Counted from the first letter of the stretch, positions 10,815 to 30,196 are shown. The stretch is 64,000 bases of DNA from an uncultured Acidobacteriota bacterium (GCA_963720545.1 OY970399.1:1696001-1760000), one strand, 5' to 3'. The notes: generated by a model from the letters alone, not told the origin. Made by a program: numbers and translations.

Positions 10815-12224
10815 TTACTGCGCTGCCACCTTCCAGTGGCCGGTCGCCTGATCGATCGTGATGCGGGTCGAGAAGCGCTGGGAAGCCTTCGCGACCTGAT
10901 TCAGGATCGCCTGGCCTCGTGCCCCGACCGCCACGCGCGGGGTTCCGCGTTGGGCCCGTCCGTCTCCGGACAGGAACGGGCCCGTATTGCCGAGCTCAAT
11001 GGGCAGGATCTCGATCGACTCGACGTCGTGACCCCGGAAGTGAGACAGGACGACCGCGCCATCCCACCAGTGGGCATTCTCGGGCAACAGGCTGTAGTCC
11101 GCGCCCTGTCCTTTCGGGTCGTACAAATCGCCCTCGAGCGCCAGCGGTGAGCCAACGCCGAACTCATCGTAGATGTCCTGGCTCTGGGGCGTCGTCGTCT
11201 CATATTGGAAGACGAAGTCGCCGAGGCTGTAGAAGATGGGCTTGCCCTTGTAGATCTCTATGCCGCGGAGCCGGTGGGGTCCGTGCACGATGAAGCTGGT
11301 GGCGCCCGCGTCCACGATCCGGTGTGCGACGTCGATCAGCCAGTCGGGAGGATCGTCGACCGTGGCCCCGCCCTCGTGGGAGTGGGTGGTGACGAGGACG
11401 AAGTCGGCCTGGCGTGCCGCGCTCCGCACGTTGCGCAGGATCCGCTCCACATCTTCATCGCGGGGCTGTTCGCGACGGCGCGTCTTGTCGGCCGGCACGA
11501 AGGTCTGGCCGAAAGCGCGCACGGAACTCGGTGGCTTCCCTGCCTCCTCCTTGGTGTGGAGGCTCGTGAGCAGTTCCCGCAGACTCTTCATGCCCTTGGC
11601 GTCCAGCTCGTAGCTCACATCCAGGCGCAAGGGGTTGAGCCCGGGCCGCCCTTGTACCTCGCCGCGCACTGAACCGGCGCGCAGAAAATCGTTGAACGTG
11701 CTGGCGAAGCTGATGAGCGCGACCCGGCCATTCCTGGTTTCGAAATACCTGGGCTGGCTCGCCATGCCCAGGTTGCGATCGACGCCGGCGTGCACGAGCC
11801 CGATCTCGTCCAGCGTCGCGTTGGTCGCCAGCATGCCCTCGATTCCGTAATCGCCCGAGTGGTTGTTGGCCCGCGACACCACGTCGAAACCCGCCCACTT
11901 CAAGGACAGCGCCACCTCCGGTTCGCCGCGCTCGTAGCCACCGCCGCTGCTGGCGGCCGGCCAGCCCTTGAACTCGGAGAAGCGGAACACCTGGCACTCC
12001 AGGTTGGTGAACGCCACGTCGGCGCCGCGCACCGCTTCGACCCAGCGAAGGAAGAGCGGATCGTCGAAGATGCGAAGGTCGCGGGTGATGAGCGAGTCGC
12101 CCGTGGCCGCGAGGGTCCATTCGTGCTTCGGGTCCATCTGCGCGACGGCCGGCGAGGCGATGAGAAGGATGAAGGCCGCGTGGGCGACGGCGCCGAGCGT
12201 GGTTTGTCCGGGCCGCCGCGTCAC
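10815..12224 (-). CDS. CapA/PGA_cap family metalloenzyme, exported
   Basis: TGD, FTNLE, ANNHSGDYG, HSHE, HGPH..GIEIY.GKPIFYSLG; signal peptide; GTGA overlap with the upstream stop. Confidence 0.88.
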   Translation of the reverse strand: MTRRPGQTTLGAVAHAAFILLIASPAVAQMDPKHEWTLAATGDSLITRDLRIFDDPLFLRWVEAVRGADVAFTNLECQVFRFSEFKGWPAASSGGGYERGEPEVALSLKWAGFDVVSRANNHSGDYGIEGMLATNATLDEIGLVHAGVDRNLGMASQPRYFETRNGRVALISFASTFNDFLRAGSVRGEVQGRPGLNPLRLDVSYELDAKGMKSLRELLTSLHTKEEAGKPPSSVRAFGQTFVPADKTRRREQPRDEDVERILRNVRSAARQADFVLVTTHSHEGGATVDDPPDWLIDVAHRIVDAGATSFIVHGPHRLRGIEIYKGKPIFYSLGDFVFQYETTTPQSQDIYDEFGVGSPLALEGDLYDPKGQGADYSLLPENAHWWDGAVVLSHFRGHDVESIEILPIELGNTGPFLSGDGRAQRGTPRVAVGARGQAILNQVAKASQRFSTRITIDQATGHWKVAAQ

Positions 12225-13957
12225 GGCTTCGCCGCCGCTGCGGCCGGGCTGGGCCGCGCCCGGTAGCCGGGTCCTCTCACCACCATCCCCGGCCGTGCCG
12301 CGGTGATCTTGCCGTCGTCCACGACCACCTTGCCATTCACCAGCACGTACGGGATCCCCGCTGCGAATTGATGCGGCTTCTCATAGGTGGATCGCTCCGC
12401 GATCGTCGCCGGGTCGAAGATCACGACGTCGGCATAAAAGCCCGGGTACAGAAGGCCGCGATCCCGAATCCCCAGGCGTTCTGCGGACAGCGAGGTCGCC
12501 TTGCGCACCGCGTCCTCCAGCGTCAGCAGGCCGAGCTTGCGAACGTACTCCTCGAAAATCCGAGGAAAGCTGCCGTACGCCCGCGGGTGGACTAGGCCGT
12601 TCGACAAGGGACCATCCGGCGCGACGCTCTGCCCGTCGGTCCCGAACCCGACCCATGGCCGGGGCATCGCGTAGCGCAGGTCGTCCTCGTTCGTGATGAG
12701 CACCGTATCGCCGGCGTCGCCGGCGAGGATGATGTCGAGCACCAGGTCGCGCGGGTCCTTTTTCTCGGCTTCCGCCGCCTCGGCCAGGGTCTTGCCCTGG
12801 TATTTCTCCGCGACGGCGTTGCCTCGGGCGTCGGTGATCGAGAAGCCCGCGGGCCCACCGCCGGCGCCCAGGTACTCGTTCTCCCATTCTGCTCCGGGCG
12901 TCGCGAACTCGGTCTTGATGCGCTCGCGTGTCGCCGGATCCTTCAGCCGCCCGACAATTGCCTCGCGGCCGCCTTCCTGCGCCCAGGGCGGCAGCAACGG
13001 CGTGAACGACCCGCCGGCCCGCACGTAGGGGTAGAGGTCCGCTGTGATGTCGAGGCCCTCCTTCCGAGCAGCCTCGATCCTGGCGACGATCTGAGGCATC
13101 CGGCCCCAGTTCTGCTGGTAGGTCACCTTGAAATGCGTCACGTGCGCCGGGATGTGCGCCTCGCGCGCAATGCGGAACACCTCTTCAATGGCGCTCTCGA
13201 CGTGATCGCTTTCGCTGCGGATGTGCGACTGGTAGTAGCCCCCGTACTCGGACGCTACCTTGGCCATCTCTATCAGCTCTTCGGTCCGGTTGTAGCGATC
13301 CGGTGAGTACATGAGCGCCGAGTACAGCCCCATAGCGCCGTCCTGCATCGCCCCGCGGACGATGGCCTTCATCTGCTCGAGCTCGTTTTTGCTCGCCGGC
13401 CGGTCGGCGTGGCCGATCACCATCTCGCGCGGATTCAGGGTGCCGATGTGGGTGGCGAAATTGACGGTGGGGGGCGTGCGCTCGAGGCGGCGGAAGTAGT
13501 CGCCGAGGGTGCGCCAGTCGGGTTTGATGCCGAGGCGCTCGTACTCGTCGCGACGAGCGGCGAGAAAAGCTTCGTTCACCGGCGCGATCGACTCGCCCTC
13601 ACCCTCGACCTCAAGGGTGATGCCTTGGGTCACCTTGCTGGCCGCACGGCCGTCGACAAGGAGCTTCCAGGAGGCGTGGCTGTGCATGTCGACGAAGCCT
13701 GGACACACCACCCGGCTGGCGGCGTCGATCCGGCGCGCTGCCTTCGCCTTCGAGAGGTCGCCGATCGCGGCGATGCGCTTGCCGCGGATGCCCACGTCGC
13801 CCCGGAACCAGGGATTGCCGGTGCCGTCGACGATATGGCCTCCCGAAATCACGAGATCGAACGGCGGGTCCACAGGCGCCGGCGTGGCAGCCGCTACCGC
13901 CGTCAGCGACAGGGCGAGTAGGGATAGACGTCCGTTACGGGTCCAGCCTCTCGACAT
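12221..13957 (-). CDS. N-acyl-D-amino-acid deacylase (D-aminoacylase), exported
   Basis: GGHIVDGTG, PGFVDMHSH, SHIRSE, THFK, DLYPY, GTDG, HPRAYGSFPR; GGAGG RBS; signal peptide. Confidence 0.9.
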   Translation of the reverse strand: MSRGWTRNGRLSLLALSLTAVAAATPAPVDPPFDLVISGGHIVDGTGNPWFRGDVGIRGKRIAAIGDLSKAKAARRIDAASRVVCPGFVDMHSHASWKLLVDGRAASKVTQGITLEVEGEGESIAPVNEAFLAARRDEYERLGIKPDWRTLGDYFRRLERTPPTVNFATHIGTLNPREMVIGHADRPASKNELEQMKAIVRGAMQDGAMGLYSALMYSPDRYNRTEELIEMAKVASEYGGYYQSHIRSESDHVESAIEEVFRIAREAHIPAHVTHFKVTYQQNWGRMPQIVARIEAARKEGLDITADLYPYVRAGGSFTPLLPPWAQEGGREAIVGRLKDPATRERIKTEFATPGAEWENEYLGAGGGPAGFSITDARGNAVAEKYQGKTLAEAAEAEKKDPRDLVLDIILAGDAGDTVLITNEDDLRYAMPRPWVGFGTDGQSVAPDGPLSNGLVHPRAYGSFPRIFEEYVRKLGLLTLEDAVRKATSLSAERLGIRDRGLLYPGFYADVVIFDPATIAERSTYEKPHQFAAGIPYVLVNGKVVVDDGKITAARPGMVVRGPGYRARPSPAAAAAKP

Positions 13958-13983
13958 CGAAACCTCCGTATCGCGTGCGGGCC

Positions 13984-16752
13984 CTAGTAGTCGACCTTGG
14001 CTCCCAGCATCAAGCGGCGAGGCGCGAGCACGTCTTTCGGCGCATGGTAGATATCGGATGTGGCCAGGTCGCTGCGGAAGGCGGTCGCAACGTTGCCGTT
14101 GAACACGTTCAGGAGGTTCGCGATCAACGAAAGACGGGCATCGCCCTTCCCCAGGTTGAAGTCCTTCTGCAGCCTCAGGTTCAGGACGTCGATGTTCTCG
14201 AAGCGCCGGTCGCTGGCTCGCGGCAGTGTCTGGACGGTGCTGTTGAGTCCGGTCTCCTCGATGCGCACCTGCCGCTGCGTCGGGTAGCCCGTGAGATAGG
14301 ACCAGTCGGCAGCCAGGGTCATGCCCAACGGAAGTCCCGCGTAGAGGAACTGGGTCTTGGCCAGTATCCGGCGGTCGCGAAAGGCCAGGCCGTCCGAGTT
14401 GATGTAGTTGTTCGGATCGCGGCCGTACTCGCGGAAGTTGAGCTGGGCGGTGCTGCCGAAGATGTGGTCGCTCGTCGCCTTCTGCACGGTGAGGGCGGTG
14501 GTGAGCTGCCACTTCGAGGCCATCCGCTTGGTGGCGGTCACGGTGAACGCATTCACGTCCGCTTTCGTGTCGCGGCCAGTGGTCAGCAGGAACCGGCGCG
14601 CGCCGCGATCGTTCTGGAGCTGCAATACGTTGAAGGTGCGCCCGGACGCGTCGACTCCAACGTCGTCCACATAGGGCACCGGCGCATAGATGCCCCCCAC
14701 GTCTTCCCAGTTGCTGAGGTGGCGGCCGCGTTTCATCACGAACGTGGCGGCGACGTTCAGTGTCTTGAAAAGCTCGTGTTCGAGGCTGAGAGTGAACTGA
14801 TCGGTCCGCGCCGGTTTCAGGTCCGGATCGACGGCGGCGTTCGACGGCGTGCTGTTCACCACGATGTTTTCAAACTGGCCGGTCACGAAGTTCCAATCGC
14901 CGAGCAGGCTCTGCACGCGGGTCGGCGAGGTGGCGGCGCTCCACTCTCCGGTGTTCCCGGCGCGGTAATAACGCCCGTAGTGTCCCTTGAGGACGGTCTT
15001 CCCATCGCGGGAGAGCTTGAGGTTGAAGCCGATCCGCGGCGCCACGGTGTTCCAGTTGTAGACGTCGGAACCCTTGACGATCTCGCTCGTTGCGTTGCCG
15101 AGCTCGTCCGACACGGGCTGGTCGGTGAACCTCGCCTTGGTGTTGTCGTAGCGCAGCCCGGCGTTGAGTTGGAGGCGCTCACCCACCTGCACGGAGTCGT
15201 CGGCGAATGCGCCCACCGTCTTCACGGTGCCACCGTAGAAGTAGGGCTGGTAGTCGTAGCCGTACCCGGTGATGGAATCGGAGCTGTAAACACGATCGTT
15301 TACGCCATAAATGCCGTCGACCGGTGCGTTCGAATACTGGATGCCGAACTTGAAGTCGTGGCCCGCGCCAAGGAACTCGTCGGCGTGATGCGACAGCTTC
15401 GCGTTTATCGAAGTGCGACTCGTTTCGTACTCATACCAGCCGAAGATCGCGCCGCTGGCGTCGCCCGTCTCGAGGTTCTCGAAGCGGGTTCCCACCACCC
15501 GCTTGCCGCCGCCAGCGCCGCAGCACTTGTGGTCGACGTAGTAGCCCGCGTACTGCGCTTCGAGCAGCGTGTTGCTGTTGAGGGCGCCGCTGTAGGCAAC
15601 GCTCGTCGTCGTCGTATGGCGGCCGGTTCCCTCGGCGGTCTCGGGGGCCTGTCCCGGGAAGCGCCCCTCGTCGTGCTGGGCCACGTCGTAGTTAACGACG
15701 CCGGTCAGCTGGTGCCCCGGCTGCAACTGGAAGTTGAGTTTTCCGAGGTAGTGATCGAGTTGATCGTTGCCCGCCTGGTCGGCGGGCACCGTGGGCTGGG
15801 CAGACGAGTCGCGGAGCCGTTCGTACGACGTGAAGAACCACATCCTGTCCTTGATGATCGGACCTCCGAGCTGCGCCGTGAAGTTGCGATAGTGCAGCCG
15901 GGTGAAAGGATTGCCGTCGTCGATGTCCTGGGTCGTGTTGCGGGAAGTCAGGCCGTCACTTTGATAGTAGAAGGCGGCGCCGCCGCGAAAGCGATTCGTG
16001 CCCTGGCGCGTGACGACGTTGAAGACGGCGCCCTCATGGTCACCGTACTCCGCGGGCGCGCCGAGCGACAGGACCTCGATCTGCTCGATCGTGTCGATGC
16101 TGGGCTGGACCAGTGTTGTCGCGTTGCCGTTGAAATGGTCCGTGACGTTGACGCCGTCCAGCTGATAGAGGTTCTGGTCCACGTTGCTGCCGAACGATGC
16201 CGGCTGCAGTCGCGTCCCGTCCGGCGCCGGATCGACGCCGGGCGCGTTGGCCAGGATGTCCATGTAGCTCTTGCGTTCGTTCGGAGCGCCGGCGATCCAG
16301 TCGCGGTCGTAGGTCGTCTCGACCTTGGCCGAGGTGGTGTCCACCACTTCCTCGCTGGCTTTCACCGTGATCGCCTCGACCTGGCCCGCGAGCTTCAGGG
16401 TCACATCCTCGGTAATCGTGGCGCCGACACGAACCCGGACGTCCGTGCGCTTCGTCGTGCCGAAGCTGGCCAGGGTGAAGGTCAGCTCGTAAGTCCCCGG
16501 CGGCAGGGAATTGAAGCGGTACTGGCCGCGCTCGTCGGTGGTGAAAGTGTGAACACCCATCACGCGGTCGCCGGCAAGCTCGACCCGGACACCGGGGAGC
16601 GTGGCACCCGATTCGTCCTTCACGGCGCCGACGACCCGGCCGGTGGATGCGACCTGGGAGCGGGCCGGAGCTGCCGTCACCGTGATGAGGGCGAGGGCGA
16701 CGAGCGTTGCCGTCCTCGAGCTGCTCCAACGGGCCTGCTGACTTCTCGACAT
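13984..16752 (-). CDS. TonB-dependent receptor (Oar-like, with N-terminal carboxypeptidase-regulatory-like domain)
   Basis: G.V.DESGA.LPGV, N.YQLDG, AEYG..GAVFNVVTRQGTN, LGGPIIKDRMWFF, APRIGF, C-terminal aromatic beta-strand. Confidence 0.92.
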   Translation of the reverse strand: MSRSQQARWSSSRTATLVALALITVTAAPARSQVASTGRVVGAVKDESGATLPGVRVELAGDRVMGVHTFTTDERGQYRFNSLPPGTYELTFTLASFGTTKRTDVRVRVGATITEDVTLKLAGQVEAITVKASEEVVDTTSAKVETTYDRDWIAGAPNERKSYMDILANAPGVDPAPDGTRLQPASFGSNVDQNLYQLDGVNVTDHFNGNATTLVQPSIDTIEQIEVLSLGAPAEYGDHEGAVFNVVTRQGTNRFRGGAAFYYQSDGLTSRNTTQDIDDGNPFTRLHYRNFTAQLGGPIIKDRMWFFTSYERLRDSSAQPTVPADQAGNDQLDHYLGKLNFQLQPGHQLTGVVNYDVAQHDEGRFPGQAPETAEGTGRHTTTTSVAYSGALNSNTLLEAQYAGYYVDHKCCGAGGGKRVVGTRFENLETGDASGAIFGWYEYETSRTSINAKLSHHADEFLGAGHDFKFGIQYSNAPVDGIYGVNDRVYSSDSITGYGYDYQPYFYGGTVKTVGAFADDSVQVGERLQLNAGLRYDNTKARFTDQPVSDELGNATSEIVKGSDVYNWNTVAPRIGFNLKLSRDGKTVLKGHYGRYYRAGNTGEWSAATSPTRVQSLLGDWNFVTGQFENIVVNSTPSNAAVDPDLKPARTDQFTLSLEHELFKTLNVAATFVMKRGRHLSNWEDVGGIYAPVPYVDDVGVDASGRTFNVLQLQNDRGARRFLLTTGRDTKADVNAFTVTATKRMASKWQLTTALTVQKATSDHIFGSTAQLNFREYGRDPNNYINSDGLAFRDRRILAKTQFLYAGLPLGMTLAADWSYLTGYPTQRQVRIEETGLNSTVQTLPRASDRRFENIDVLNLRLQKDFNLGKGDARLSLIANLLNVFNGNVATAFRSDLATSDIYHAPKDVLAPRRLMLGAKVDY

Positions 16753-16811
16753 GACACCCTCCTAGGCAAGGGAAGGAACGAGCGGGCCGCACGGCGAGTC
16801 CTTGTTCGGAT

Positions 16812-16947
16812 GAACACGTGAACAATAATCTGTGAGAGCAATCGCTGTCAAGCACTGTGAACACGCCTACAAACTCTGCCGGACCCTGGTCCTGCCGAGC
16901 GAAAGGCGTTGACAGGAAATGGTGTTCACGCTATTGTTCACATGTTC
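16812..16947. promoter_or_regulatory. Divergent sigma70 promoters with mirrored operators
   Basis: Plus strand TTGACA(16909)-17-TATTGT; minus strand TTGACA(16851)-18-TATTGT; GAACAYGTGAACAATA inverted copies at 16812-16827 and 16932-16947. Confidence 0.7.
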
Positions 16948-16985
16948 TCGTTCATTGCAGCCGAGCAGTCGCCTCGAGGAGATCG

Positions 16986-17018
16986 ATGCTCATGACGGCC
17001 CATCGGGCAGAGCAGTGA
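16986..17018 (+). CDS. Putative 10-aa leader ORF (MLMTAHRAEQ)
   Basis: GAGGAG RBS at 16976-16981; its TGA overlaps the GTG (17015) of the next gene. Confidence 0.35.
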   Translation: MLMTAHRAEQ

Positions 17019-18169
17019 CGACCACGACCGCCGCGGCGAAGGGCTCGATCTTCGAACGCCTGGGCGTCAAGCCGGTGATCAACGCCTGCGGCGTCTACAC
17101 CGACCTCGGCGGCTCGGTGCTCTCCCCGGGCGCCTGGGCGGCCATGGCCGAGGTCAATGGCTCCTTCGTCAGCATGATCGAGCTGCTCGACCGCACCGGC
17201 GCGATCCTCGCCGCGAAGGTCGGCGCCCAGGCGGCGCGGGTCACCCCGGGCGCGTCGGCCGCCATCGCCCTGGGAACGGCCGCCTGCCTCACCGGCACCG
17301 ATGGCGAGCTGGGCCAGCAGCTGCCGGATACCACCGGCCTCAGCAGGACCGAGGTGCTGATCCAGCACGGCCATCGTTATAAATACGATCGCTGCGCACG
17401 GCTTGCGGGCGCGAAGCTCCGCGCCGTGAGTGCCGAGACCCTCGACCAGCTGAGCTCCGCCATCAGACCGGAGACTGCCGCCATCCTGCATCCGGCTCAT
17501 CTGGACGGGCGGCCGGGCACGGTGCGCCTCGCGGATGTGTCTCGCATCGCCCGCTCCAAAGGCGTGCCAGTGTTCGTGGACGCTGCCTATGCGAACGACC
17601 CTCCCGAGCGCATGCGGACCTTCGTCGCCGACGGGGCCGACCTCGTGTGCTTCAGCGCCAAATATTTCGGCGGTCCCAACGCGGGAGGCTTCATCGCGGG
17701 CCGCGCCGACCTCATTGCCGCGGTCACCAGCGCCGACTTCACGCGTTACGAATCGGGGAAGTACCTGAAATTCGGCCGCGCCTTCAAGCTCGATCGCCAG
17801 ATCGTGGTGGCAGTGGTGGCCACTCTCGAGGAGTGGTTTGCCATGGACCACGCGGCGCGCTGGGCGGGCTACAGGAAAAAAGCCGAATTCCTGGTCGCGA
17901 ACCTCGCCGGGGTCCCGGGGATCAAGGCGTCGGCCGAATGGTTCACGATGGATGAGCGGCTCGTGACCGAGCGCGCGAACTGCGCCGCGATCCGCTTCCT
18001 GCCCGGCTCCCGGCACACGGCCGCCTCGGCTTCCGCCGCGCTGCTGGCGGGCGATCCGAAGATCGCCACGGTGGTGCTGGGTGACGTGCTCGTCGCCGGC
18101 GTGGATTCGGTCCTCGACGGACAGGAGGAATTCCTGGGGCGCGAACTGCGGCGCGTCCTGTCGAACTGA
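17015..18169 (+). CDS. SelA-like/DgaE-like PLP-dependent enzyme
   Basis: LGVKPVINACG.YT.LGGS, VTPGASAAI, VDAA, FSAKYFGGP (PLP lysine); start is uncertain. Confidence 0.82.
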   Translation: MTTTTAAAKGSIFERLGVKPVINACGVYTDLGGSVLSPGAWAAMAEVNGSFVSMIELLDRTGAILAAKVGAQAARVTPGASAAIALGTAACLTGTDGELGQQLPDTTGLSRTEVLIQHGHRYKYDRCARLAGAKLRAVSAETLDQLSSAIRPETAAILHPAHLDGRPGTVRLADVSRIARSKGVPVFVDAAYANDPPERMRTFVADGADLVCFSAKYFGGPNAGGFIAGRADLIAAVTSADFTRYESGKYLKFGRAFKLDRQIVVAVVATLEEWFAMDHAARWAGYRKKAEFLVANLAGVPGIKASAEWFTMDERLVTERANCAAIRFLPGSRHTAASASAALLAGDPKIATVVLGDVLVAGVDSVLDGQEEFLGRELRRVLSN

Positions 18170-18193
18170 CAGCTACATTCGAAGAGGTGGCGA

Positions 18194-19306: not shown

Positions 19307-19322
19307 CGACGGCGCGCGCCGG

Positions 19323-20213: not shown

Positions 20214-20239
20214 GTTTCCCTCCCGCTTGCTGGTATGTT

Positions 20240-20261
20240 TGTTGACTTGTTCTACAATACG
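20240..20261. promoter_or_regulatory. GntR-type operator candidate
   Basis: TGTTGACTTGTTCTACAATACG; 18/22 identical to 23118-23139; lies between divergent genes. Confidence 0.6.
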
Positions 20262-20301
20262 ACATAATGCTGCACGAGAGGCAAGTTTCGGGGAGGATGC
20301 G

Positions 20302-22065: not shown

Positions 22066-23075
22066 AGAGTCGGCTGGAGCTTGCTAGGCGTGCCCAGGCC
22101 TTTGGCTCGGGCACGTTCGAGGGCGAAGCAGGCAATCGCCGTGTCCTGGACCCCGACGCCCGTCAGGTCGCAGACCGTGACCTCGGCGTCGCTCTTGCGC
22201 CCCGGATGCTTGCCGGCGGCGAGGGCGCCAAGCTCCACCACCGGTGTCGCGCTCGTGACGGTTCCCGCCGCAACCGCGTGCTGCAATTCGCCGAGGCGCT
22301 CGCACTGCGAGCGGAGGTCGCACACGATGAGATCGGCTCTCTGGAAGATGCGTGGATCGAGCTCCTGCTTGCCCGGGCCGTCCGAGCCCAGGGCTGTGAT
22401 GTGCAGCCGCTCGTGGAGGTCGGCGAAGTCGAGGAGCGCCTCGTGCGCAGGCGTCGCGGTGACCACGATCTCGCAGCGCCGCGCCACCTCGGCCGGGTTC
22501 CGTGCCGGCACGACCTCGACCTGCAGTTCCTGAGACATCTCGGCCATGAACTTCCGCACCGCCTCCGGTTTGCGGCCGTAGACCACGACCTTGCGGAAGT
22601 CGCGGACGAGCTTCAGGGCGCGAAGCTGGAAACGCGCCTGCATGCCGACACCGACGACGCCCGCCGTGTGGACCGCAACGGGGGCGAGGTATTTCGCGGC
22701 GATCGCTCCCGCCAGCGCCGTCCTTACCTCGGTGAGGTAGGAGTTGTCGAGCAGCAGCGCCAGCGGCCAGCCGGTCTCGGCGGAGAGCAGGACCATGAGG
22801 CCGCTCGACACCGGCAGGCCGACCTTCGCGTTGGCGTAGAACCCCGAGGCGATCTTCACCGCGAACCCGGCAAGGCCGCGCACGTAGGCCGACTTCACGT
22901 GCACCTCGGCCTCGCGCTCGGCGATGTCGATTCCGATCGGCGGCGGCACCGTCACCTCGCCGCGCCCGAGGCGAGCGAAGCCGTCCTCGACGGCGGCCAA
23001 CGCCGCGGCGTCGAGACCGACGCAGGAACGGATCTCGGCCTCGTTGAGCTGCAGGAAGGGGGCGGGCGTAGGCAC
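22062..23075 (-). CDS. Ornithine cyclodeaminase/mu-crystallin family protein (EutC-like)
   Basis: HVKSAY, VKIASGF, YLTEVRTALAG, GVGMQA, GSDGPGKQEL, DLTGVGVQD. Confidence 0.9.
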   Translation of the reverse strand: MPTPAPFLQLNEAEIRSCVGLDAAALAAVEDGFARLGRGEVTVPPPIGIDIAEREAEVHVKSAYVRGLAGFAVKIASGFYANAKVGLPVSSGLMVLLSAETGWPLALLLDNSYLTEVRTALAGAIAAKYLAPVAVHTAGVVGVGMQARFQLRALKLVRDFRKVVVYGRKPEAVRKFMAEMSQELQVEVVPARNPAEVARRCEIVVTATPAHEALLDFADLHERLHITALGSDGPGKQELDPRIFQRADLIVCDLRSQCERLGELQHAVAAGTVTSATPVVELGALAAGKHPGRKSDAEVTVCDLTGVGVQDTAIACFALERARAKGLGTPSKLQPTL

Positions 23076-23117
23076 CTTTGGTCAACCTCCGGAAGGAACG
23101 GCTCGAGTCTAACATGC

Positions 23118-23154
23118 TGTTGAGATGTTGAACAATACGGCAGATTGTTCTACA
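23118..23154. promoter_or_regulatory. GntR-type operator candidates
   Basis: TGTTGAGATGTTGAACAATACG followed by TTGTTCTACA, between divergent genes. Confidence 0.6.
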
Positions 23155-23201
23155 GTTCGGGCTTCGACCCTGGGGGTTCCTTGTCGCTGACGCCGGGCAC
23201 C

Positions 23202-24578
23202 GTGCGAGACACAGAGGCCCCCGGGCTTCGCCGCGAGCTGGGGCTCGTCGACTCGGCCCTGATGCTCGTCGGCGTCGTGCTCGGCTCGGGCATCTTCATG
23301 ACGACCGGCCTCATGGCGTCGGCCCTTCCCTCGCCCGGTCTGATCATGCTGGCCTGGGCAGTGGGCGGGCTCCTGACCCTCGCCGGGGCGGCCGTGTTCG
23401 CGGAGCTCGGCGCCGCCCTGCCGGAGGCCGGCGGCGGCTACGTCTACCTGCGCGAGGCGTACGGTCCGCTCGTCTCGTTCCTGTTCGCGTGGGTGACGCT
23501 GCTCGTGTACCAGCCGGGAGCGATCTCGGCGGTGGCCGTTGGCTTCGCTGAGCATCTCGGCTACCTGGTGCCTGTGCTGGGCGCGGACGTGGTGGCCGTG
23601 CGCGTGCCCCTGGGCAGCTACACGCACTCGATCTCGGCCGCCCAGCTCGTGGCGTCGGCCACCATTCTCGGCCTGACGGCCGTGAACATCATCGGGCTTC
23701 GCGTCGGCAGCAACATCGCGAACGTGGTGACGACGCTGAAGGTCGCGGCACTCATCGCCTTTGCTTTTCTCGGGATGCTCGTCGGGCGGCCGCCGGCCGC
23801 GGCCGCCGCGACAACGGCGGCGAGCCTCGGAACGTCCGATCTCCTGACCGGCTTCGGTCTCGCCCTGGTCGCGGCGCTCTGGACCTACGACGGCTGGATC
23901 AACCTGAGCTTCTCTGGCGGTGAGGTGAAGGACCCGGGGCGTACGATCCCGCGCGCGCTCATGCTGGGCACCAGCGCACTGACGGCGCTCTTCCTGCTGG
24001 TCAACGCGGTGTACCTGTACGCGCTGTCGATTCCGCAGATGCAAGGCGTCACCCGGGTCGCCGAGCGAGCGACCACCGCGCTCTTCGGTGCAGGAGCCGG
24101 GATCTTCATGGTGGCGGTCGTGGCGCTCTCTTCGTTTGGCGGCACGCACGGCACTGTCCTCACCGGTGCCCGGCTCTACTACGCGGTGGCGAAGGACGGG
24201 TTCTTCTTTCGGTCGATGGCCCACGTGAATCGCAAACACCACACCCCGGACGTCGCGCTCTGGGTCCAGGGGGTGCTCTCGGCTGCCCTCGCGCTCTCCG
24301 GCCGCTTCGACCAGCTCTTCACCTATTGCATGTTTGCGGCGCTCCTCATGTACGGGATGACGACCGCTTCGGTCATGACGCTGCGCCGCACGCGCCCGGA
24401 CCTGGCGCGTCCCTACCGGGTCTGGCCCTACCCCGCCCTGCCCCTGATCTACATCGCGGCGTTGGCGGTGCTGTGCGTGAACACGCTGCTGACCCGGCCG
24501 CTCGAATCCTTCTCAGGGCTGCTGATCGTGGCCGCCGGGGTTCCCGCCTTCTTCGTCTGGCGTCGCCGCGCTGCCTGA
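23202..24578 (+). CDS. APC family amino acid permease
   Basis: GSGIF, AELGAALPEAGGGYVYL, YDGW, GGEVKDP, RPYRVWPYP; about 12 TM; start is uncertain. Confidence 0.92.
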   Translation: MRDTEAPGLRRELGLVDSALMLVGVVLGSGIFMTTGLMASALPSPGLIMLAWAVGGLLTLAGAAVFAELGAALPEAGGGYVYLREAYGPLVSFLFAWVTLLVYQPGAISAVAVGFAEHLGYLVPVLGADVVAVRVPLGSYTHSISAAQLVASATILGLTAVNIIGLRVGSNIANVVTTLKVAALIAFAFLGMLVGRPPAAAAATTAASLGTSDLLTGFGLALVAALWTYDGWINLSFSGGEVKDPGRTIPRALMLGTSALTALFLLVNAVYLYALSIPQMQGVTRVAERATTALFGAGAGIFMVAVVALSSFGGTHGTVLTGARLYYAVAKDGFFFRSMAHVNRKHHTPDVALWVQGVLSAALALSGRFDQLFTYCMFAALLMYGMTTASVMTLRRTRPDLARPYRVWPYPALPLIYIAALAVLCVNTLLTRPLESFSGLLIVAAGVPAFFVWRRRAA

Positions 24579-24581
24579 TTT

Positions 24582-24609
24582 TTGTTCAACAATCCGACTG
24601 TGGTACATT
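24582..24609 (+). promoter_or_regulatory. Palindromic operator plus extended -10 element
   Basis: TTGTTCAACAA (24582-24592); TGgTACATT (24601-24609) ends 5 nt before GTG 24615. Confidence 0.55.
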
Positions 24610-24614
24610 CAATC

Positions 24615-26240
24615 GTGGGCTTCGATCTGCTCGTCACGGGGGGCGTTGTCGTCGACGGCACAGGATCGCCCGGCTTCCCCGCTGACGTCGGAATCCGTGA
24701 CGGTCGGATCGCCGCCGTTGGCCGGCTTGGCGCCGCCTCGGCGCAACGCCGGCTCGAGGCCAACGGGCGCGTGGTGGCGCCCGGCTTCATCGACCTCATG
24801 GGCACCAGCGATTGGACGCTCCTCGCCGACCGCCGCGCAGCGTCGAAGATCAGCCAGGGCATCACGCTGATGGTCGCCGGCGAGCGCTTCTCGGCGGCGC
24901 CCCAGAGTGAAGAGCGGCGTCGCGAGCTGCAGCCCGAAATGGCGCGCCTCAGCGTCGCCCCGGATTGGACCTCCCTCGCGGACTTCTTCGCGCGCCTCGA
25001 GGCCTCGCCGCCAGCAGTGAACTTCGCCACCTTCGTGGCCGCGGGAAGCCTGCGGGACGCCGTGATGGCCCGCGAGGATCGAAGAGCGTCGGCTTCCGAG
25101 CTTGCCGCCATGGAGCGCCTCGCCGGCGCCGCCATGGAGGACGGGGCCCTGGGCGTCGCGAGCGCCCTCATTTACGTTCCGCACCGCTACGCTCCGACCG
25201 AGGAGCTCGTCGCCCTTGCCCGCGTGGCCGGCAGTTACGGCGGAATATACGCGACCCACCAGCGCAGCGAGGGCGACGAGATCGACGCCTCGCTCGACGA
25301 GGTGTTCGAGATTGCCGCCGAAGCTCGCGTGCCCGCCCACATCTTTCACCTCAAGACGACATTCCAGAGGAATGCCGGACGCATGAGTGCCGTGACGAAA
25401 CGTATCGATGCGGCGCGGCAACGCGGCCTCGTCATCACCGCCGATGTCTACCCGTACACGGCGGCGTGCGGGAACCTGCGCGCGCTGCTCCCGCCCTGGG
25501 CCCGCGAGGGTGGCCTCGACGCGACATTGGCAAGGCTGCGCGACGCATCGACTCGCGAGCGGATCATGACCGAGCTCGCCGCGCTGGGCGCCGGTTGGGA
25601 CAACGAGTATCTCGGGGCCGGCGCCGAGCGCATCGCGATCGCGGAGACGTCGGCGCCGTCTCTCGCGCCGCTGCTCGGCCGCTCGCTCTCGGACATCGCT
25701 CACGAGAGGAACCAGGACCCGCGCGCGTCGCTGCTCGATTTGCTCCTCGAGGACGAGGGCCGCACCCGCATGCTCTGCTGCATCATGGATGAAAGAGACG
25801 TCGCGCTCGCGCTGCAACAGCCGTGGACGGCGTTCTGCACCGACTCGGAGCAGCGCGCCGTCGATGGACCGCTGGCGACGGGCCGGCCGCATCCCCGGGC
25901 ATTCGGTGCATTTCCGCGCGTCCTGGGCCGTTACGTCCGCGAGTCCTCGCTGCTCTCTCTCGAGACGGCGGTGCACAAGGCCACGTCGCTGCCCGCGCGC
26001 ATCCTCGGGCTGCGCGAGCGCGGCCACGTCCATGAGGGCTTTCACGCCGACCTCGTGGTGTTCGACCCCGAGAAGGTCATCGACCGAGCAAGCTACGAAG
26101 CGCCGTACCAATACTCGGCGGGAATAGACTACGTCGTCGTCAATGGTCAGGTGGTCGTAGATCAGGGACGGATCACCACCGCGCGTCCGGGGCGGGTCAT
26201 CCGCGGTGCGGGATGTCGCGGTCAAGGAGAGAGGCAATGA
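24615..26240 (+). CDS. D-aminoacylase family amidohydrolase, cytoplasmic, lacking HxH
   Basis: GGVVVDGTG, PGFIDLMGTS, THQRSE, FHLK, DVYPY, CTDS, HPRAFGAFPR; no signal peptide. Confidence 0.88.
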   Translation: MGFDLLVTGGVVVDGTGSPGFPADVGIRDGRIAAVGRLGAASAQRRLEANGRVVAPGFIDLMGTSDWTLLADRRAASKISQGITLMVAGERFSAAPQSEERRRELQPEMARLSVAPDWTSLADFFARLEASPPAVNFATFVAAGSLRDAVMAREDRRASASELAAMERLAGAAMEDGALGVASALIYVPHRYAPTEELVALARVAGSYGGIYATHQRSEGDEIDASLDEVFEIAAEARVPAHIFHLKTTFQRNAGRMSAVTKRIDAARQRGLVITADVYPYTAACGNLRALLPPWAREGGLDATLARLRDASTRERIMTELAALGAGWDNEYLGAGAERIAIAETSAPSLAPLLGRSLSDIAHERNQDPRASLLDLLLEDEGRTRMLCCIMDERDVALALQQPWTAFCTDSEQRAVDGPLATGRPHPRAFGAFPRVLGRYVRESSLLSLETAVHKATSLPARILGLRERGHVHEGFHADLVVFDPEKVIDRASYEAPYQYSAGIDYVVVNGQVVVDQGRITTARPGRVIRGAGCRGQGERQ

Positions 26241-26968
26241 TGCCCAATACGTCGAAGGCCGCTTCCAGGGCAGCGGCCCAGGCCGTGGCCAAGGCCAACT
26301 TCGCCGGTCTCACGATCCAGAAGACGAGCACGGCCGATCAGGTGGCGGGGCTGCTCCGCGAGCGGATCCTCGGCGGCCAGCTGCGTCCCGGGATGCCGCT
26401 GCGCGAGGTGCTGTTGGCGGGATCCATCGGCGTTTCACGCAACACGCTGCGCGAGGCGCTCCGCATCCTGATCCAGGAGGGTCTCGTCCTGCACACGGTC
26501 CACCGCGGAATCACCGTCACGCAGCTGACCAAACAGGCGGTCGCCGACATCTACCAGGTGCGCCGCATGCTGGAGCTGCGTGCGGTCGAGACGGGCAAAC
26601 CGGACAAGTCGCAGATCGCGGGCCTCTACGAAGCCACGGACCGGCTCGAGGAGGCCGCGAAGACCCAGGATTGGCCCGGTGTCTTCGAAAGCGACATGCT
26701 CTTCCACGGGCGCCTGGTCGCGCTCCTCGGGAGCGAGCGGCTGGACGTGTTCTACGGAAACCTGCTGAGCGAGCTGCGACTGGGTCTCGTGGAAGTGGAC
26801 CGCCAATCGCGCGATGTGAAGCGCAGCCGGGCTGCACATCGGCGTGTCGCCGACCTGCTGGCGGCCGGCAAACGGCGCGAGTGCGCGCGCTTCCTTGCCG
26901 AGCACCTGGCGGAGGCCGAGCGCCTCGTCACGGCGGTCGTGGCTGGGGAAGCGGTCGCCGCGAGCTGA
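26237..26968 (+). CDS. GntR family regulator (FadR/FCD type)
   Basis: LRPGMPLREV.LA..IGVSRNTLREALR.L..EGL; IYQVRRMLE; D..FH; ATGA overlap. Confidence 0.92.
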   Translation: MMPNTSKAASRAAAQAVAKANFAGLTIQKTSTADQVAGLLRERILGGQLRPGMPLREVLLAGSIGVSRNTLREALRILIQEGLVLHTVHRGITVTQLTKQAVADIYQVRRMLELRAVETGKPDKSQIAGLYEATDRLEEAAKTQDWPGVFESDMLFHGRLVALLGSERLDVFYGNLLSELRLGLVEVDRQSRDVKRSRAAHRRVADLLAAGKRRECARFLAEHLAEAERLVTAVVAGEAVAAS

Positions 26969-27005
26969 CGTCGCCGCACTAGACCTTTCATCGGAGTCAT
27001 CGCGC

Positions 27006-28115
27006 ATGCAAATCGAACCGTTCGCGCTGGAACGCTGGCAGTCCGAGTGGGAAAACCTGGTCAAGCACAACCTCTCCGAGAGCGGCGTGCATCGGATGAG
27101 CGTCCAGGAGCTGCTCGGCCCGGGCGAGGCTGACGAGGTTCTCTCCCAGGGGCTCTCCTACGGCTATTCGAACGGCAGCGACGCGCTGCGGGCCGCGATC
27201 ACCGCGCAATACCCCGGCGCAAGGCCGGAGCAGGTCGTTGTCACCAATGGCTCGGCCGAGGCAAACTTCATCTCGGCCTGGCGTGTGGTCGAGCCCGGGG
27301 ACGAGGTCGTGATGGTGCTGCCGAACTACATGCAGCTCCACGGCCTGTTCCACGCATTCGGCGCGAAGGTGGTCGGCGTCCAGCTGCACGAGGCAAACGG
27401 ATGGGCCCTCGACGTGGACGAGCTGCGCCGCGCGGTGAACCCGAAAACGCGGCTCATCTCGGTCTGCAATCCCAACAACCCGACCGGCGCGATCCTCAGC
27501 GAGGCCGAGATGCAGGGCGTCGTCGCGGCCGCCGCGCGCCACGGCTCGTGGCTCCTGGCGGACGAGGTGTACCGCGGCGCCGAGCGCGAAGGCCCCGAGA
27601 CCCCGACGTTCTGGGGTCGCTACGAGCGCCTCTTCGCCACCTGCGGTCTCAGCAAGGCGTACGGCCTGCCCGGACTGCGGATCGGCTGGGCGGTGAGTCC
27701 TCTCGAGACCGCGGGCGAGCTGTGGGCGCGGAAGGACTACACGAGCATCTTCCCGAGCATCCTCTCCGACCTGCTCGCGCAGAAGGCGCTCGGAATGCGT
27801 GACCGCATCCTCGAGCGCACCCGCGGCATCCTGCGCGCCAACTGGCCCGGCATGGAGACGTGGCTCGCGCGGAATCGCCACGTGCTCACCGTCGTTCCCT
27901 CGAAGGCGGGCGCCATCGTGTACGCGCGCTACAACCTGAAGATGCCGTCCACAGAGCTGATCGCGCTCCTCAAGGACGAGGAAGACGTCCTCATCGTCTC
28001 GGGCACTCACTTCGGCATGGACGGCTTCGTCCGCATCGGGTACGGCAACGAGCCGGCAGATCTGCAGGCCGCCCTCGCCAGGCTGACGGCGTTCCTCGAA
28101 CGACACGCGAGCTGA
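27006..28115 (+). CDS. Class I/II PLP-dependent aminotransferase
   Basis: NPNNPTG, DEVY, LSKAYGLPGLRIGW. Confidence 0.92.
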   Translation: MQIEPFALERWQSEWENLVKHNLSESGVHRMSVQELLGPGEADEVLSQGLSYGYSNGSDALRAAITAQYPGARPEQVVVTNGSAEANFISAWRVVEPGDEVVMVLPNYMQLHGLFHAFGAKVVGVQLHEANGWALDVDELRRAVNPKTRLISVCNPNNPTGAILSEAEMQGVVAAAARHGSWLLADEVYRGAEREGPETPTFWGRYERLFATCGLSKAYGLPGLRIGWAVSPLETAGELWARKDYTSIFPSILSDLLAQKALGMRDRILERTRGILRANWPGMETWLARNRHVLTVVPSKAGAIVYARYNLKMPSTELIALLKDEEDVLIVSGTHFGMDGFVRIGYGNEPADLQAALARLTAFLERHAS

Positions 28116-28121
28116 CCGCGG

Positions 28122-30086
28122 TCAGGCCCGAGGCGATGGCGTTCCCGTTGCCTTCAAGTACTTGTCGATCCAGTCGAACTCCCGTTGCATCTTGTCGCGC
28201 TGATAGCTCGGGACGCCGATGCCGTGGGGTTGATCCGGGTAGATGATGAGCTTCGTCGGCACCTTGTAGTGCTTGAGAGCCGCGTAGAACTCCTGGCTCT
28301 GCCCGATCGGGACGATCTGGTCTTTCTCCCCCTGGAAGATCAGGCACGGCGTCTTGACGTGCGGTGCCGCGGTGAGGGGTGAGCGCTCGGTCCAGCGCTC
28401 GAACTTCCCGTACGGATCTTCGTTCATCATGTCGAAGCCCGGGTTGATGATCGCCGTGCCGTAGTAGCTGATCAGGTTGGTATCGCCGGCGCCGTACGCC
28501 GCGACCTTGAACCGGTCCGTATGGCCGATGACCCACGACGTGGAATACCCACCGTAGCTCCAGCCCTTCACGGCCAGACGCTCCGGGTCCGCGATGCCGC
28601 GCGCCACGAGGCTGTCGAGGCCAGTCATCAGGTCCGCGAAGACACCGTCTTCGAGCGCCGCGGAATTGGAGCCCGCGCCGTGGGCGAAGCGCGCGCCGTA
28701 GTTCGCGGACGTCCTGAAGTTGGGAAGGAACGTGACGTATCCCGCCGCGGCGTAGACCTGCGGGTCGCTCGACCAGTTCGCGGTGTAGCTGCGGGTGTGG
28801 GCGCTCTCCGGGCCCCCGTGAATGTCGAGGACGGTGGGATAACGGCGCCCCTCCTGGTAGTCCGTCGGATAGACAATGAGCCCCTCGATCTCGATGCCGT
28901 CCGCCGACTTCCATCGCACCGTCTCCATCTTGCCCAGGGCCAGGCCCTCGAGCTCTGCGTTGAGGTGCGACACCTGCCGCATCGGCTCCTTGCCGTCGCT
29001 GCGGAGCCACAATTCGAGCGGCCGCTGCGGCGTTTCGTGGAGCAGGACCATCTGCGTGCCCGAGCGGTTCATGGCGAAGGGGCCGAAGTCTCCCTCCCCT
29101 TTGGTGAGGGGCGCCAGCTTCTCGTCGGCGCTCGAGAGCTTGAACAGACGCGTGTTGACGTGCAGGCCAGCCGCGACGATGAAGTCGGCGTCGTCCAGCC
29201 ATTCGTGCTGAGCGATGTAGCCCTCGAACTGCCGGGCAAGGATACGAACCGGCCCTCCGCTCGCGGCCACGACGTTGACGCGCGGCGGACCGACGCCAAG
29301 TGGATTGTCGTCCGAGGGAGCCAGGAAACTGACGCGAGACCCGTCCGGGCTCCAGCGGACGTCGAACTCCGCGTCCTGGTTCGTCGTGAGCCGTTGCGAC
29401 GGCCCACCCGCCAACGGCATCACGTAAAGCTCGCGCTTGAACGACTCCAGGAACCGCGGGGAAGGCTCGGCGAGGTACGCCACCGTGCGCGAGTCGGGTG
29501 AGACGACCGCCTCGACGACGTAAGGAGCCGGCTCGGTCAGCGGCTTGACGGTTCCATCGCCCGCTTGCCATCGCCAGGCGCGGCTCGAGAGCGGCTCCTC
29601 GTCCACGACGATCACCGGTTTCGTGATCGACGGCTCCGGGTCCGAATCGGCCGCGAGGAAGACGATGGCCTTCCCGTCAGGCGACCATTCGAACCCGCTG
29701 ATCGCGGCCGGGTGCTTGAAGAGCCGGCGCGGCTCGCTGCCGGTCGCCGCCAACGCGTACACGGCGGCACTTCCGTCGCGATCCGAGAGGAAGGCGAGCG
29801 TGCCGTCGGCGCTAAACCGGGCCTGCCACTCCGATCCGGCGCCAGAGACAGCCCGTCCAAAGGACCCGGCGCGCAAACCCGCGACGTAGACGTGCTTGTC
29901 GAAGCGGTCTTTCTCGCGGTTCCACTCGGTCGCCTCGAACGCCGCCCGCGAGCCGTCGGGCGACAGCTGCGGGTCGGAGGCGCGGCGCACGCCCAGCACG
30001 TCCTCGATGCGCATCGGCCGACCGCCGGCTGCCGCGCTCCCCCAAAAGAACGACCAGGCGGCGAGCACGAACAAGGTTCTCTTCAT
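28122..30086 (-). CDS. S9 family peptidase, exported
   Basis: PD40-like WSPDG repeats, HGGP, GWSYGG, D(QIVP), H(GI); GGAGG RBS; signal peptide. Confidence 0.92.
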   Translation of the reverse strand: MKRTLFVLAAWSFFWGSAAAGGRPMRIEDVLGVRRASDPQLSPDGSRAAFEATEWNREKDRFDKHVYVAGLRAGSFGRAVSGAGSEWQARFSADGTLAFLSDRDGSAAVYALAATGSEPRRLFKHPAAISGFEWSPDGKAIVFLAADSDPEPSITKPVIVVDEEPLSSRAWRWQAGDGTVKPLTEPAPYVVEAVVSPDSRTVAYLAEPSPRFLESFKRELYVMPLAGGPSQRLTTNQDAEFDVRWSPDGSRVSFLAPSDDNPLGVGPPRVNVVAASGGPVRILARQFEGYIAQHEWLDDADFIVAAGLHVNTRLFKLSSADEKLAPLTKGEGDFGPFAMNRSGTQMVLLHETPQRPLELWLRSDGKEPMRQVSHLNAELEGLALGKMETVRWKSADGIEIEGLIVYPTDYQEGRRYPTVLDIHGGPESAHTRSYTANWSSDPQVYAAAGYVTFLPNFRTSANYGARFAHGAGSNSAALEDGVFADLMTGLDSLVARGIADPERLAVKGWSYGGYSTSWVIGHTDRFKVAAYGAGDTNLISYYGTAIINPGFDMMNEDPYGKFERWTERSPLTAAPHVKTPCLIFQGEKDQIVPIGQSQEFYAALKHYKVPTKLIIYPDQPHGIGVPSYQRDKMQREFDWIDKYLKATGTPSPRA

Positions 30087-30104
30087 GTGGATCCTCCGCG
30101 TGCT

Positions 30105-30117
30105 GAACATGTGAACA
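30105..30117. promoter_or_regulatory. Operator candidate shared with the TonB/SelA-like promoter
   Basis: GAACATGTGAACA matches the 16812 and 16932 motifs. Confidence 0.6.
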
Positions 30118-30196
30118 GATTGTCACGGGAGCGCCCCGGCCGTCAACGAGGGAAACTTCTGGAAACAGCGCGTCCCCTGAGCGAGGCGACAAGACG

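Follow-up and report, generated by a model that had tools for sequence, protein, structure and literature searches.

The locus described here raises the question of whether 13 contiguous genes form a unit and, if they do, what that unit feeds on. The genes lie within a 64,000-nucleotide stretch of DNA from an uncultured Acidobacteriota bacterium (GCA_963720545.1 OY970399.1:1696001-1760000), which is called the window and to which coordinates given without a handle refer; the genome that holds it, G000, is one contig of 4.09 Mb. In order, the genes encode an MslH-like protein of the CapA family (CapA), a D-aminoacylase-like amidohydrolase (Dac1), a TonB-dependent-receptor-like protein, a SelA-like pyridoxal phosphate (PLP) enzyme, an S12 serine hydrolase (S12a), an M55 peptidase, a second S12 hydrolase (S12b), an enzyme of the ornithine cyclodeaminase (OCD) family, an APC permease, a second D-aminoacylase-like protein (Dac2), a GntR-family regulator, a PLP enzyme originally labelled an aminotransferase, and an S9 peptidase. 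The first-pass annotation regarded them as a compartmentalised system for D-amino-acid peptides resembling a polysaccharide utilization locus (PUL). The answer held here with moderate confidence is that the 13 genes constitute a conserved, reshuffled module, marked by one operator-like motif, that feeds on D-amino-acid peptides or N-acyl amides. It draws on the co-occurrence of the genes in other genomes, the conservation of the operator-like motif, locus-specific clades, folds and active-site residues.

Layout of the locus and its operator-like motif

The 13 contiguous genes claimed at first pass are all present: each open reading frame (ORF) was found, over 10815..30086, with the Pfam family expected, although the claimed end at 30117 falls in the promoter of the S9 gene, the last gene ending at 30086. 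Coding sequence makes up 18,663 of 19,272 bp, with intergenic gaps of -4 to 262 bp. The first three genes are on the minus strand, followed by two on plus, one on minus, one on plus, one on minus, four on plus and one on minus; because the strands alternate, a single operon was rejected, and about seven transcription units are predicted (receptor-Dac1-CapA, SelA-S12a, M55, S12b, OCD, APC-Dac2-GntR-aminotransferase, and S9). As judged by hydropathy and inspection, a hydrophobic N-terminal extension is present on seven proteins (CapA, Dac1, the receptor, S12a, M55, S12b and S9) and absent from the SelA-like, OCD-family, Dac2, GntR and aminotransferase proteins, in agreement with the earlier division of the enzymes into those with and without signal peptides. 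CapA, the SelA-like enzyme and GntR are single-copy in G000 (tblastn, E <= 1e-8); the same genome holds 7 Dac-like, 12-13 S12, 11 APC and 32 receptor-like genes, and for these multi-copy families co-location alone needed testing.

The common palindrome of the locus is of FadR type with the core TGTTSAACA. Intergenic matches to a pattern written from the locus sites themselves number 23 genome-wide, of which 7 fall in the locus against 0.09 expected. A less circular test is provided by a 25-bp matrix (consensus TGTTGAMTTGTTSAACAAKTCAACA) trained on 11 sites of G020, G541, G209 and G478, these sites having been chosen with the same core pattern; across the 4.09 Mb of G000 it ranks the locus sites at 20252, 23130, 30105 and 24587 as 1, 2, 3 and 6. 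The first is a 25-bp palindrome in the M55/S12b divergon (20240..20264), the second lies in the OCD/APC divergon together with a further core site at 23146-23154 (23118..23154 in all), the third belongs to operator-like sites that overlap the predicted S9 promoter (30093..30146, minus strand), and the last stands ahead of Dac2 (24575..24599). The matrix misses the divergon between the receptor and the SelA-like gene, where its best rank is 452. There a variant 10-mer, TATTGTTCAC, accompanies both predicted promoters, that of the receptor, where it lies over the -10 box (TTGACA-N18-TATTGT, 16813..16851, minus strand), and that of the SelA-like/S12a unit (TTGACA-N17-TATTGT, 16909..16947, plus strand). 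This -10 variant occurs twice in G000, both times in this divergon, and the same promoter layout is found upstream of the receptors in G020 and G541. Taking palindrome and variant together, every predicted unit starts at one of two variants, and the genome-wide counts bear out the shared motif that had been noticed in five intergenic regions.

The odd-spaced core agrees with the FadR consensus TKGT-N3-ACMA as given in a passage of PMC4494728. The regulator encoded in the locus (26237..26968, plus strand; PF00392 + PF07729) is of the same subfamily, having GntR and FCD domains, and the palindrome tracks it across genomes. Perfect sites are present at the loci that have GntR (G000, G020, G541, G209 and G478), ATTGTTGAACAAT stands directly upstream of the GntR orthologues in G209 and G478, and sites of the form WTGTTSAACAW fall in the locus in 4 of 10 cases genome-wide in G541, 2 of 5 in G020 and 1 of 7 in G209. 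The loci of G547 and G161 hold none of the 11 and 6 perfect sites of their genomes, in neither of which GntR was found, and the metagenome contig L054 has neither a perfect site nor GntR within the 21 kb covered. The local GntR likely binds and represses the shared operator, and co-regulation of the units, to which the motif points, is likewise likely. Orthologues of this GntR were found in 4 of 401 genomes of the class and 4 of 401 of the phylum, its own genome counted.

Several further features adjoin these sites or the regulator. In G478 (G478:C146 7,100-24,700) this GntR, together with a perfect operator, stands at the head of a receptor whose cargo is different, namely LLM-class oxidoreductase, M24-like and M20 hydrolases, molybdenum hydroxylase and ketopantoate-reductase-like genes. 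On the right flank of the locus a methyltransferase gene (30197-31036, plus strand) is divergent from S9, and the intergenic region between them holds the rank-3 site. At 24576-24617 (plus strand) an extended -10-like box, TGTGGTACATT, ends 5 bp ahead of the Dac2 GTG with no ribosome-binding site, and the Dac2 transcript is possibly leaderless and under the operator. A 10-codon ORF at 16986-17018 (plus strand), with the strong ribosome-binding site GAGGAG, has a stop that overlaps the GTG start of the SelA-like gene (GTGA) and may serve translational coupling; the corresponding upstream stretches in G547 and G209 showed no such ORF.

Recurrence of the gene set

Searches with the receptor (61 genomes), CapA (78 genomes and collections), GntR (401 + 401), the SelA-like gene (401) and S12a (401) led to six other loci with reshuffled gene sets, in the related genomes G020, G541, G547, G209 and G161 and on L054, and these extend to two more families within the class, to a second class of the phylum and to one 44%-GC metagenome contig. 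The synteny check suggested at first pass therefore finds the genes together, with a conserved operator, well beyond the window. Over the seven loci including that of the window, each query gene being present by construction since the loci were found with these genes, Dac, S12 and APC occur in all 7, SelA in 6, CapA, M55, OCD, aminotransferase and GntR in 4 each, and S9 in 2; a receptor-like gene occurs in 5 of 7 if the unlinked G547 orthologue is counted. G020, of the same family, has all 11 families across ~70 kb, including at least five exported S12 hydrolases, and G541, of another family, lacks only CapA and S9. G547 has SelA-S12a-Dac1 in a row and an interrupted permease; its receptor, 66% identical, is found next to an S12b-type gene at a distance of 1.4 Mb. 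Two genomes outside the class, G209 and G161, belong to a single genus; both have SelA, the permease, S12 and a fusion of Dac1 with S12 but no receptor in the locus, and G209 additionally carries GntR and CapA. L054 holds a receptor, four exported S12 hydrolases, CapA, Dac, permease, aminotransferase, OCD and M55; its 488-aa protein was rejected as a SelA, having no Pfam or NCBIfam match and only Atlas hints of a class-V-like PLP protein. A CapA-S12 fusion was also found (P0015, 802 aa), G032 has matching fragments on short contigs, and four instances in which close CapA and Dac2 relatives lie on contigs of exactly matching size (57,046, 30,075, 49,678 and 20,829 bp) suggest further loci.

In trees that include the G000 paralogues, locus-specific clades are formed by APC (7 of 8 rows, support 98/95), Dac (8 of 8, SH-aLRT 91 in a quick tree), the receptor (support 100 for 4 of 4 rows, in a tree without those of G541 and L054) and S12a-type proteins (12 rows, support 98). 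The aminotransferase, OCD and M55 trees, of 7-9 rows each, contain no such clades, an equally low value being reached in 154-310 of 500 shuffles. Receptor similarity alone is no marker of the module, since 15 neighbourhoods of receptors that are ~35-43% identical contain no Dac, CapA, SelA, M55, OCD or GntR. Recent horizontal arrival of the locus was rejected because no flanking tRNA was found in or adjoining it and its third-position GC content (GC3, 0.83-0.90) is the same as that of the neighbourhood. The nearest taxon-labelled CapA relative is from Vicinamibacteria, and the related loci are labelled Acidobacteriota.

Accessory genes in the related loci point to amino acids as products of the module. 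The G020 island contains ornithine aminotransferase, ornithine carbamoyltransferase, carbamate-kinase-like, indolepyruvate oxidoreductase and D-hydroxy-amino-acid-aldolase-like genes, and in G541 a Rid-family gene is divergent from OCD across the operator. Within the G020 island, at G020:C72 44,283-47,561 (L012 16284-19562), the carbamate-kinase-like and ornithine carbamoyltransferase genes stand with that of a 434-aa family-less protein, which may resemble the arginine synthetase ArcE, behind a motif-like site. An alkaline-phosphatase-superfamily protein is encoded beside the module in four related loci (L054 1-702; G547 L222 11708-12996; G020:C72 81,617-83,695; G541 near 561-562 kb) and not in that of the window.

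Other islands and neighbouring features were also recorded. An island at G037:C2 4,640,000-4,706,000, from the same order, is a more distant relative type, with two 35-37% receptors, two M55, S12, S9s, Dac-like, OCD and APC genes of other clades. A lone SelA-like gene (56%) at G135:C8 near 103,500-108,000 (L134) is aligned in one row with genes for an M28 peptidase and a member of the alanine racemase family. G000 itself has a second hydrolase island at G000:C1 1,841,900-1,889,600 (L239-L241), with a receptor, two S12, two Dac-like genes, an aminotransferase paralogue (56%), an Asp/Glu racemase, two M20, M1, S15, S51 cyanophycinase-like, gamma-glutamyltransferase and asparaginase genes, APC permeases, an IclR regulator and two class-A beta-lactamase-like genes. 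In the window, a DUF2975 gene and a 71-aa helix-turn-helix-like ORF make up the left flank (10048-10792, plus strand), a tRNA-Arg(ACG) lies ~10 kb from the locus (40022-40098, minus strand), a row of indigoidine-synthase-A-like (pseudouridine glycosidase family), PfkB kinase and BtpA genes occupies 46948-49531 (minus strand), and an Rfam scan of 9000-32000 returned no matches.

The encoded proteins

CapA (10815..12224, minus strand; 469 aa, predicted exported; PF09587) has MslH as its only solved relative (E 1.8e-59). Its AlphaFold2 (AF2) model superposes on MslH over the whole length, insertions included, with template modelling (TM) scores of 0.81/0.86-0.87 (E 6.5e-44), as against ~0.35 for other calcineurin folds. 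Residues D43, E76, N121, H122, D125, H281, H283 and H317 correspond to MslH D11, E44, N87, H88, D91, H259, H261 and H295, so that all eight catalytic and metal residues are kept (metal site E44/N87/H259/H261; dyads H88/D91 and H295/D11); in the alignment seven of the sites are conserved in 27 of 27 rows and D11 in 26 of 27. Mutagenesis reported in a passage of PMC10406935 indicates that these eight MslH residues matter, and a passage of PMC8179263 proposes CapA proteins as epimerases. On fold and residues, CapA is a candidate peptide C-terminal epimerase. It differs from MslH in being 33% identical, in missing the NCBIfam MslH equivalog cut-off (230.8 vs 700 bits), in being predicted exported and in having catabolic neighbours, the locus being free of genes for a lasso precursor or cyclase. 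A hydrophobic N-terminal extension is present in 99 of 102 scored homologues. A role in capsule synthesis was rejected, there being no capB or capC among the 13 genes.

The neighbours of CapA were surveyed in 159 loci, which form 34 groups at 70% identity, 10 of them dropped for having less than 6 kb of flank. S12, Dac or M55 lies within 6 kb of CapA in 12 of the remaining 24 independent groups, compared with 4.2% of G000 genes, and the S9 control in 4 of 24 compared with 3.4%. A profile search with a two-sequence CapA alignment yielded no confirmed relative, and a 27-sequence alignment was used thereafter. A CapA-CstA fusion (P0121, 1052 aa), a single sequence and the only match in a search of longer proteins, was not used as support.

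The two proteins first called D-aminoacylases, Dac1 (12221..13957, minus strand; 578 aa, predicted exported) and Dac2 (24615..26240, plus strand; 541 aa, signal-less), do fall in that subfamily by sequence and fold. The Dac2 AF2 model (pLDDT 93) has TM scores of 0.80/0.91 to D-acylases. The carboxylate-site Tyr/Arg, the acyl-site Tyr, the base Asp and the two beta-site His are invariant in 60 of 60 rows, with equivalences taken from motifs and alignments and roles from a passage of PMC12149444. In fold, YPY motif, carboxylate-site Arg, base Asp and beta-site His both proteins are like subtype V D-aminoacylases, from which they differ in being ~60 residues longer, in the predicted export of Dac1 and in the loss of the bridging Cys, replaced by Gly (55 of 60 rows) or Arg (5 of 60) beside an invariant Glu. 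Dac1 has EGEG in place of the Cys and keeps HxH; Dac2 has lost HxH, which is seen in 22 of 60 rows including Dac1. Active D-acylases without the Cys exist, and other activities are raised as a question, in the same passage of PMC12149444. Dac2 was rejected as a decayed gene, its four nearest relatives also being signal-less and 541 aa long, which makes a clade of five; among its wider relatives 92 of the 117 scored look exported. Since the relatives outside the clade mostly bear signals, a periplasm/cytoplasm split is not fixed.

Both S12 proteins satisfy the SxxK, YxN, HxG motif set given in a passage of PMC2651629, S12a (18194..19306, plus strand; 370 aa, predicted exported; PF00144) with S90-x-x-K, Y176-x-N and H319-G-G, and S12b (20302..22065, plus strand; 587 aa with a C-terminal extension, predicted exported; PF00144) with S-x-x-K, Y-x-N and H-N-G. 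The best solved relative of S12b is the D-specific Pab87 (2QMI, E 2e-29) and that of S12a is IS11; as indicators of D-stereospecificity the solved relatives are mixed. The M55 protein (19323..20213, minus strand; 296 aa, predicted signal peptide; PF04951, E 1.9e-98) has DxE, H and HxxE-type zinc motifs and matches only DppA (1HI9, E 4.3e-48), scoring below the NCBIfam DppA equivalog cut-off (218.6 vs 430). The S9 protein (28122..30086, minus strand; S9C, 654 aa, predicted exported; PF00326) is acylaminoacyl-peptidase-like with the nucleophile motif GWSYG.

Among the signal-less enzymes the label cyclodeaminase had to be given up. The OCD/mu-crystallin-family enzyme (22062..23075, minus strand; 337 aa, EutC-like) scores 130.7 bits against a cut-off of 350 for the true ornithine cyclodeaminase model NF005762, passes NF006141 (411 vs 408), and is nearest to alanine dehydrogenase, pyrroline-2-carboxylate reductase and iminosuccinate reductase (E 3e-57 for the first of these vs 3e-26 for solved OCD), that is, closer to imine reductases and alanine dehydrogenase. 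The SelA-like enzyme (17015..18169, plus strand; 384 aa, signal-less; PF03841) is nearest to DgaE (PDB 7LC0, E 9.7e-32), below the cut-offs of the DgaE NCBIfam models (142.9 vs 600 and 127.4 vs 385), and the locus has no phosphotransferase system (PTS) genes. The supposed aminotransferase (27006..28115, plus strand; 369 aa) is a class I/II PLP enzyme that scores below the cut-offs of all family models; since its nearest models are PRK07324, GntC and VioD, it may be a lyase. Judged by sequence relatedness, CapA, both acylases, the M55 protein and the SelA-like enzyme have solved relatives that all act on or make D-configured alpha-carbons.

Two membrane proteins complete the set. The receptor (13984..16752, minus strand; 922 aa) consists of a signal, CarboxypepD_reg, plug and barrel, with PF13620, PF07715 and PF00593 above cut-off and PF25183 also matched, and is of the TonB-dependent type in both plug and barrel. 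The LAT-like APC amino-acid permease (23202..24578, plus strand; ~458 aa; PF13520) is given the start found in homologues; its longest ORF begins at 23145, within the operator.

Proposed route, alternatives and known systems

From the genes, motif, co-occurrence, clades, folds and active-site residues described above we infer every enzyme activity, the direction of transport, the substrate and the binding of GntR to the operator. The receptor would take oligopeptides into the periplasm. There N-acyl residues would be freed by S9, bonds beside D-residues would be cut by M55 and both S12 hydrolases, and Dac1 would strip acyl groups; inversion of C-terminal D-residues by the MslH-like enzyme would then let ordinary peptidases complete the job. 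Import of amino acids, whether free or acylated, would fall to the APC permease. In the cytoplasm Dac2 would deacylate them, both PLP enzymes would carry out elimination or deamination, and imines would either be reduced to L-amino acids or be oxidised to keto acids by the OCD-family enzyme, some product lifting GntR repression at all seven units. The locus is most economically read as a route under repressor control for those peptides and amides whose breakdown ordinary peptidases cannot complete. Muropeptides, poly-gamma-D-glutamate and nonribosomal peptides had been proposed as substrates. Enzymes diagnostic of muropeptides (NlpC/P60, S66, amidase, Ala-Glu epimerase) or of poly-gamma-glutamate (gamma-glutamyltransferase, PGA hydrolase, Glu racemase) were seen neither in the 13 genes nor in the annotated part of the related loci, whose genes were not all scanned. 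The better guess is therefore mixed debris and peptides of secondary metabolism that bear D-residues or are N-acylated.

A more specific proposal is possible but distinctly more tentative. The locus would be a dedicated, repressor-controlled D-peptide system of Acidobacteriota whose exported MslH-type catabolic epimerase converts D-residues at the C-terminus of peptides from the environment (nonribosomal peptides, lipopeptides, and D-containing peptides made on the ribosome and modified after translation, RiPPs) to L, with Cys-less D-acylases, D-peptidases and a PLP-lyase/imine-reductase pair completing D-to-L recycling.

A number of observations weigh against a D-peptide module. The bridging Cys is missing from both acylases, and HxH from Dac2 as well; OngB, a sugar-acid deacetylase, fits the Dac2 model as well as D-acylases do; and the solved protein closest to S12a is IS11, an esterase. 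The eight-residue comparison of CapA was made with MslH and homologue rows and with no non-epimerase CapA, and the neighbour figure is 14 of 41 at 80% clustering, its background coming from G000 alone and two of the 24 groups containing module loci. The related loci were found with the module's own genes, and two of them share a genus. The receptor is missing from the G209 and G161 loci and distant in G547, CapA is present in only four of the seven loci, and both are outside the invariant core. SelA-like genes stand alone in G135, G304 and G309, and Dac, SelA and GntR are absent from 8 of 8 neighbourhoods of other S12b-type genes. GntR and its operator serve other cargo in G478, the second hydrolase island in G000 has no GntR motif, and the related loci also hold the ordinary peptidases M28, M14, M20, S15 and S41.

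Such peptidases, with tricorn peptidase, would fit a co-regulated island that scavenges amino-acid amides and N-blocked peptides in general, its D-family labels being inherited names and stereochemistry having no organising part in it. The acylaminoacyl-peptidase-like S9, the acylases without canonical Cys, and the richness of G000 in S12 (14 full-length) and Dac-like (7) genes, with a second similar island, are in keeping with this explanation. Nevertheless, the ordinary peptidases come and go while S12, Dac and the permease form the invariant core, an MslH-like epimerase has no evident role in feeding on L-peptides, and the enrichment next to CapA is stronger for S12 and Dac than for S9; scavenging of this kind is considered unlikely.

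Catabolism of amino-sugar acids of the N-acetyl-D-glucosaminate type, by an OngB-like deacetylase followed by a DgaE-like ammonia-lyase, is improbable. Although the Dac2 model matches PpOngB with TM 0.81/0.92, the SelA-like enzyme is closest to D-glucosaminate-6-phosphate ammonia-lyase and Dac and SelA-like genes occur together in 6 of 7 loci, the Dac2 sequence scores prefer D-aminoacylases (E 1e-85) to OngB (1e-56), the DgaE models are far from passed, peptidases dominate the loci, and no sugar kinase, keto-deoxy-gluconate aldolase or classified glycoside hydrolase is found among annotated locus genes. Equally improbable is periplasmic detoxification of D-residue peptide antibiotics with feeding as a by-product. 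D-stereospecific S12 resistance peptidases exist, there are several exported S12 hydrolases per locus, and the spread is patchy, as the rarity of the GntR orthologue shows; however, catabolism is what one would expect where a single repressor governs a receptor of importer type, a permease and deaminating enzymes of the cytoplasm, and no efflux or self-resistance gene is present among the 13. The least likely explanation, that the receptor is a loosely attached or export-type barrel like Oar, which serves protein export, and that the module handles small amides entering by porins, can draw on the receptor being missing or unlinked in 3 of 7 loci, on the lack of a TonB or SusD-like partner in the locus and on ~32 related barrels in the genome, but it is countered by the locus-specific receptor clade, by the TATTGTTCAC promoter element conserved in G000, G020 and G541, and by TonB_C domains elsewhere in G000.

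If the favoured D-peptide and N-acyl-amide module is real, it would offer a route for recycling D-amino-acid peptides, a pool that ordinary peptidases leave behind, and a physiological setting for the exported MslH/CapA-like group (4,292 matches at E <= 1e-40 among 8,000 scored candidates), the Cys-less D-aminoacylase-like group (4,754 of 8,000 candidates at E <= 1e-100) and the SelA-like PLP group. Given the rarity of the module, its ecological weight may be modest. A literature search, largely outside subscription journals, found no description of the combination, of the regulator or of an exported catabolic MslH-like enzyme, as had been supposed at the outset; similar ideas are already in print for small contexts of two to four genes.

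PUL and CUT (carbohydrate utilization containing TonB-dependent transporter) loci and RagAB peptide import are uptake systems based on TonB-dependent transporters (TBDTs). With the former the locus shares a receptor, exported hydrolases, an inner-membrane permease, cytoplasmic enzymes and a local regulator, and the co-location of hydrolases, permease and regulator is conserved across genomes, with co-regulation suggested by the motif. It differs in having peptidases and amidases rather than carbohydrate-active enzymes (CAZymes), divergent units with FadR-type operators and a receptor outside the core, and no SusD-like gene is present among the 13, so that the PUL-like description holds for the receptor and the conserved co-located genes but not for a SusC/SusD pair, and the strict Bacteroidota definition does not apply. 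In its architecture the locus is a utilisation locus that lacks SusD. In Bacillus subtilis, dppABCDE-ykfABCD sets the M55 peptidase DppA in a context of peptide uptake, D-residue processing and an epimerase, all of which have likenesses here, whereas the present locus is without LD-carboxypeptidase, gamma-D-Glu endopeptidase and an enolase-family epimerase and its M55 protein has a predicted signal peptide.

A small precedent is a TBDT gene beside a D-aminoacylase gene in a marine gammaproteobacterium, for which N-acyl-D-amino acids were proposed as cargo from gene context (PMC3400609, in a passage). In the Pab87 neighbourhood of Pyrococcus abyssi, passages of PMC2651629 describe a D-stereospecific S12 (CubicO) peptidase that has a D-aminoacylase, a PLP aminotransferase and a transporter of peptides as neighbours, and propose feeding on environmental D-peptides. 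That neighbourhood is archaeal with an ABC transporter, whereas the hydrolases here carry predicted signal peptides, and those passages name no outer-membrane receptor, epimerase, M55 or defined regulon. The likeness lies in the S12 hydrolase, D-aminoacylase, PLP enzyme and transporter, and in Pab87 being the solved protein nearest to S12b.

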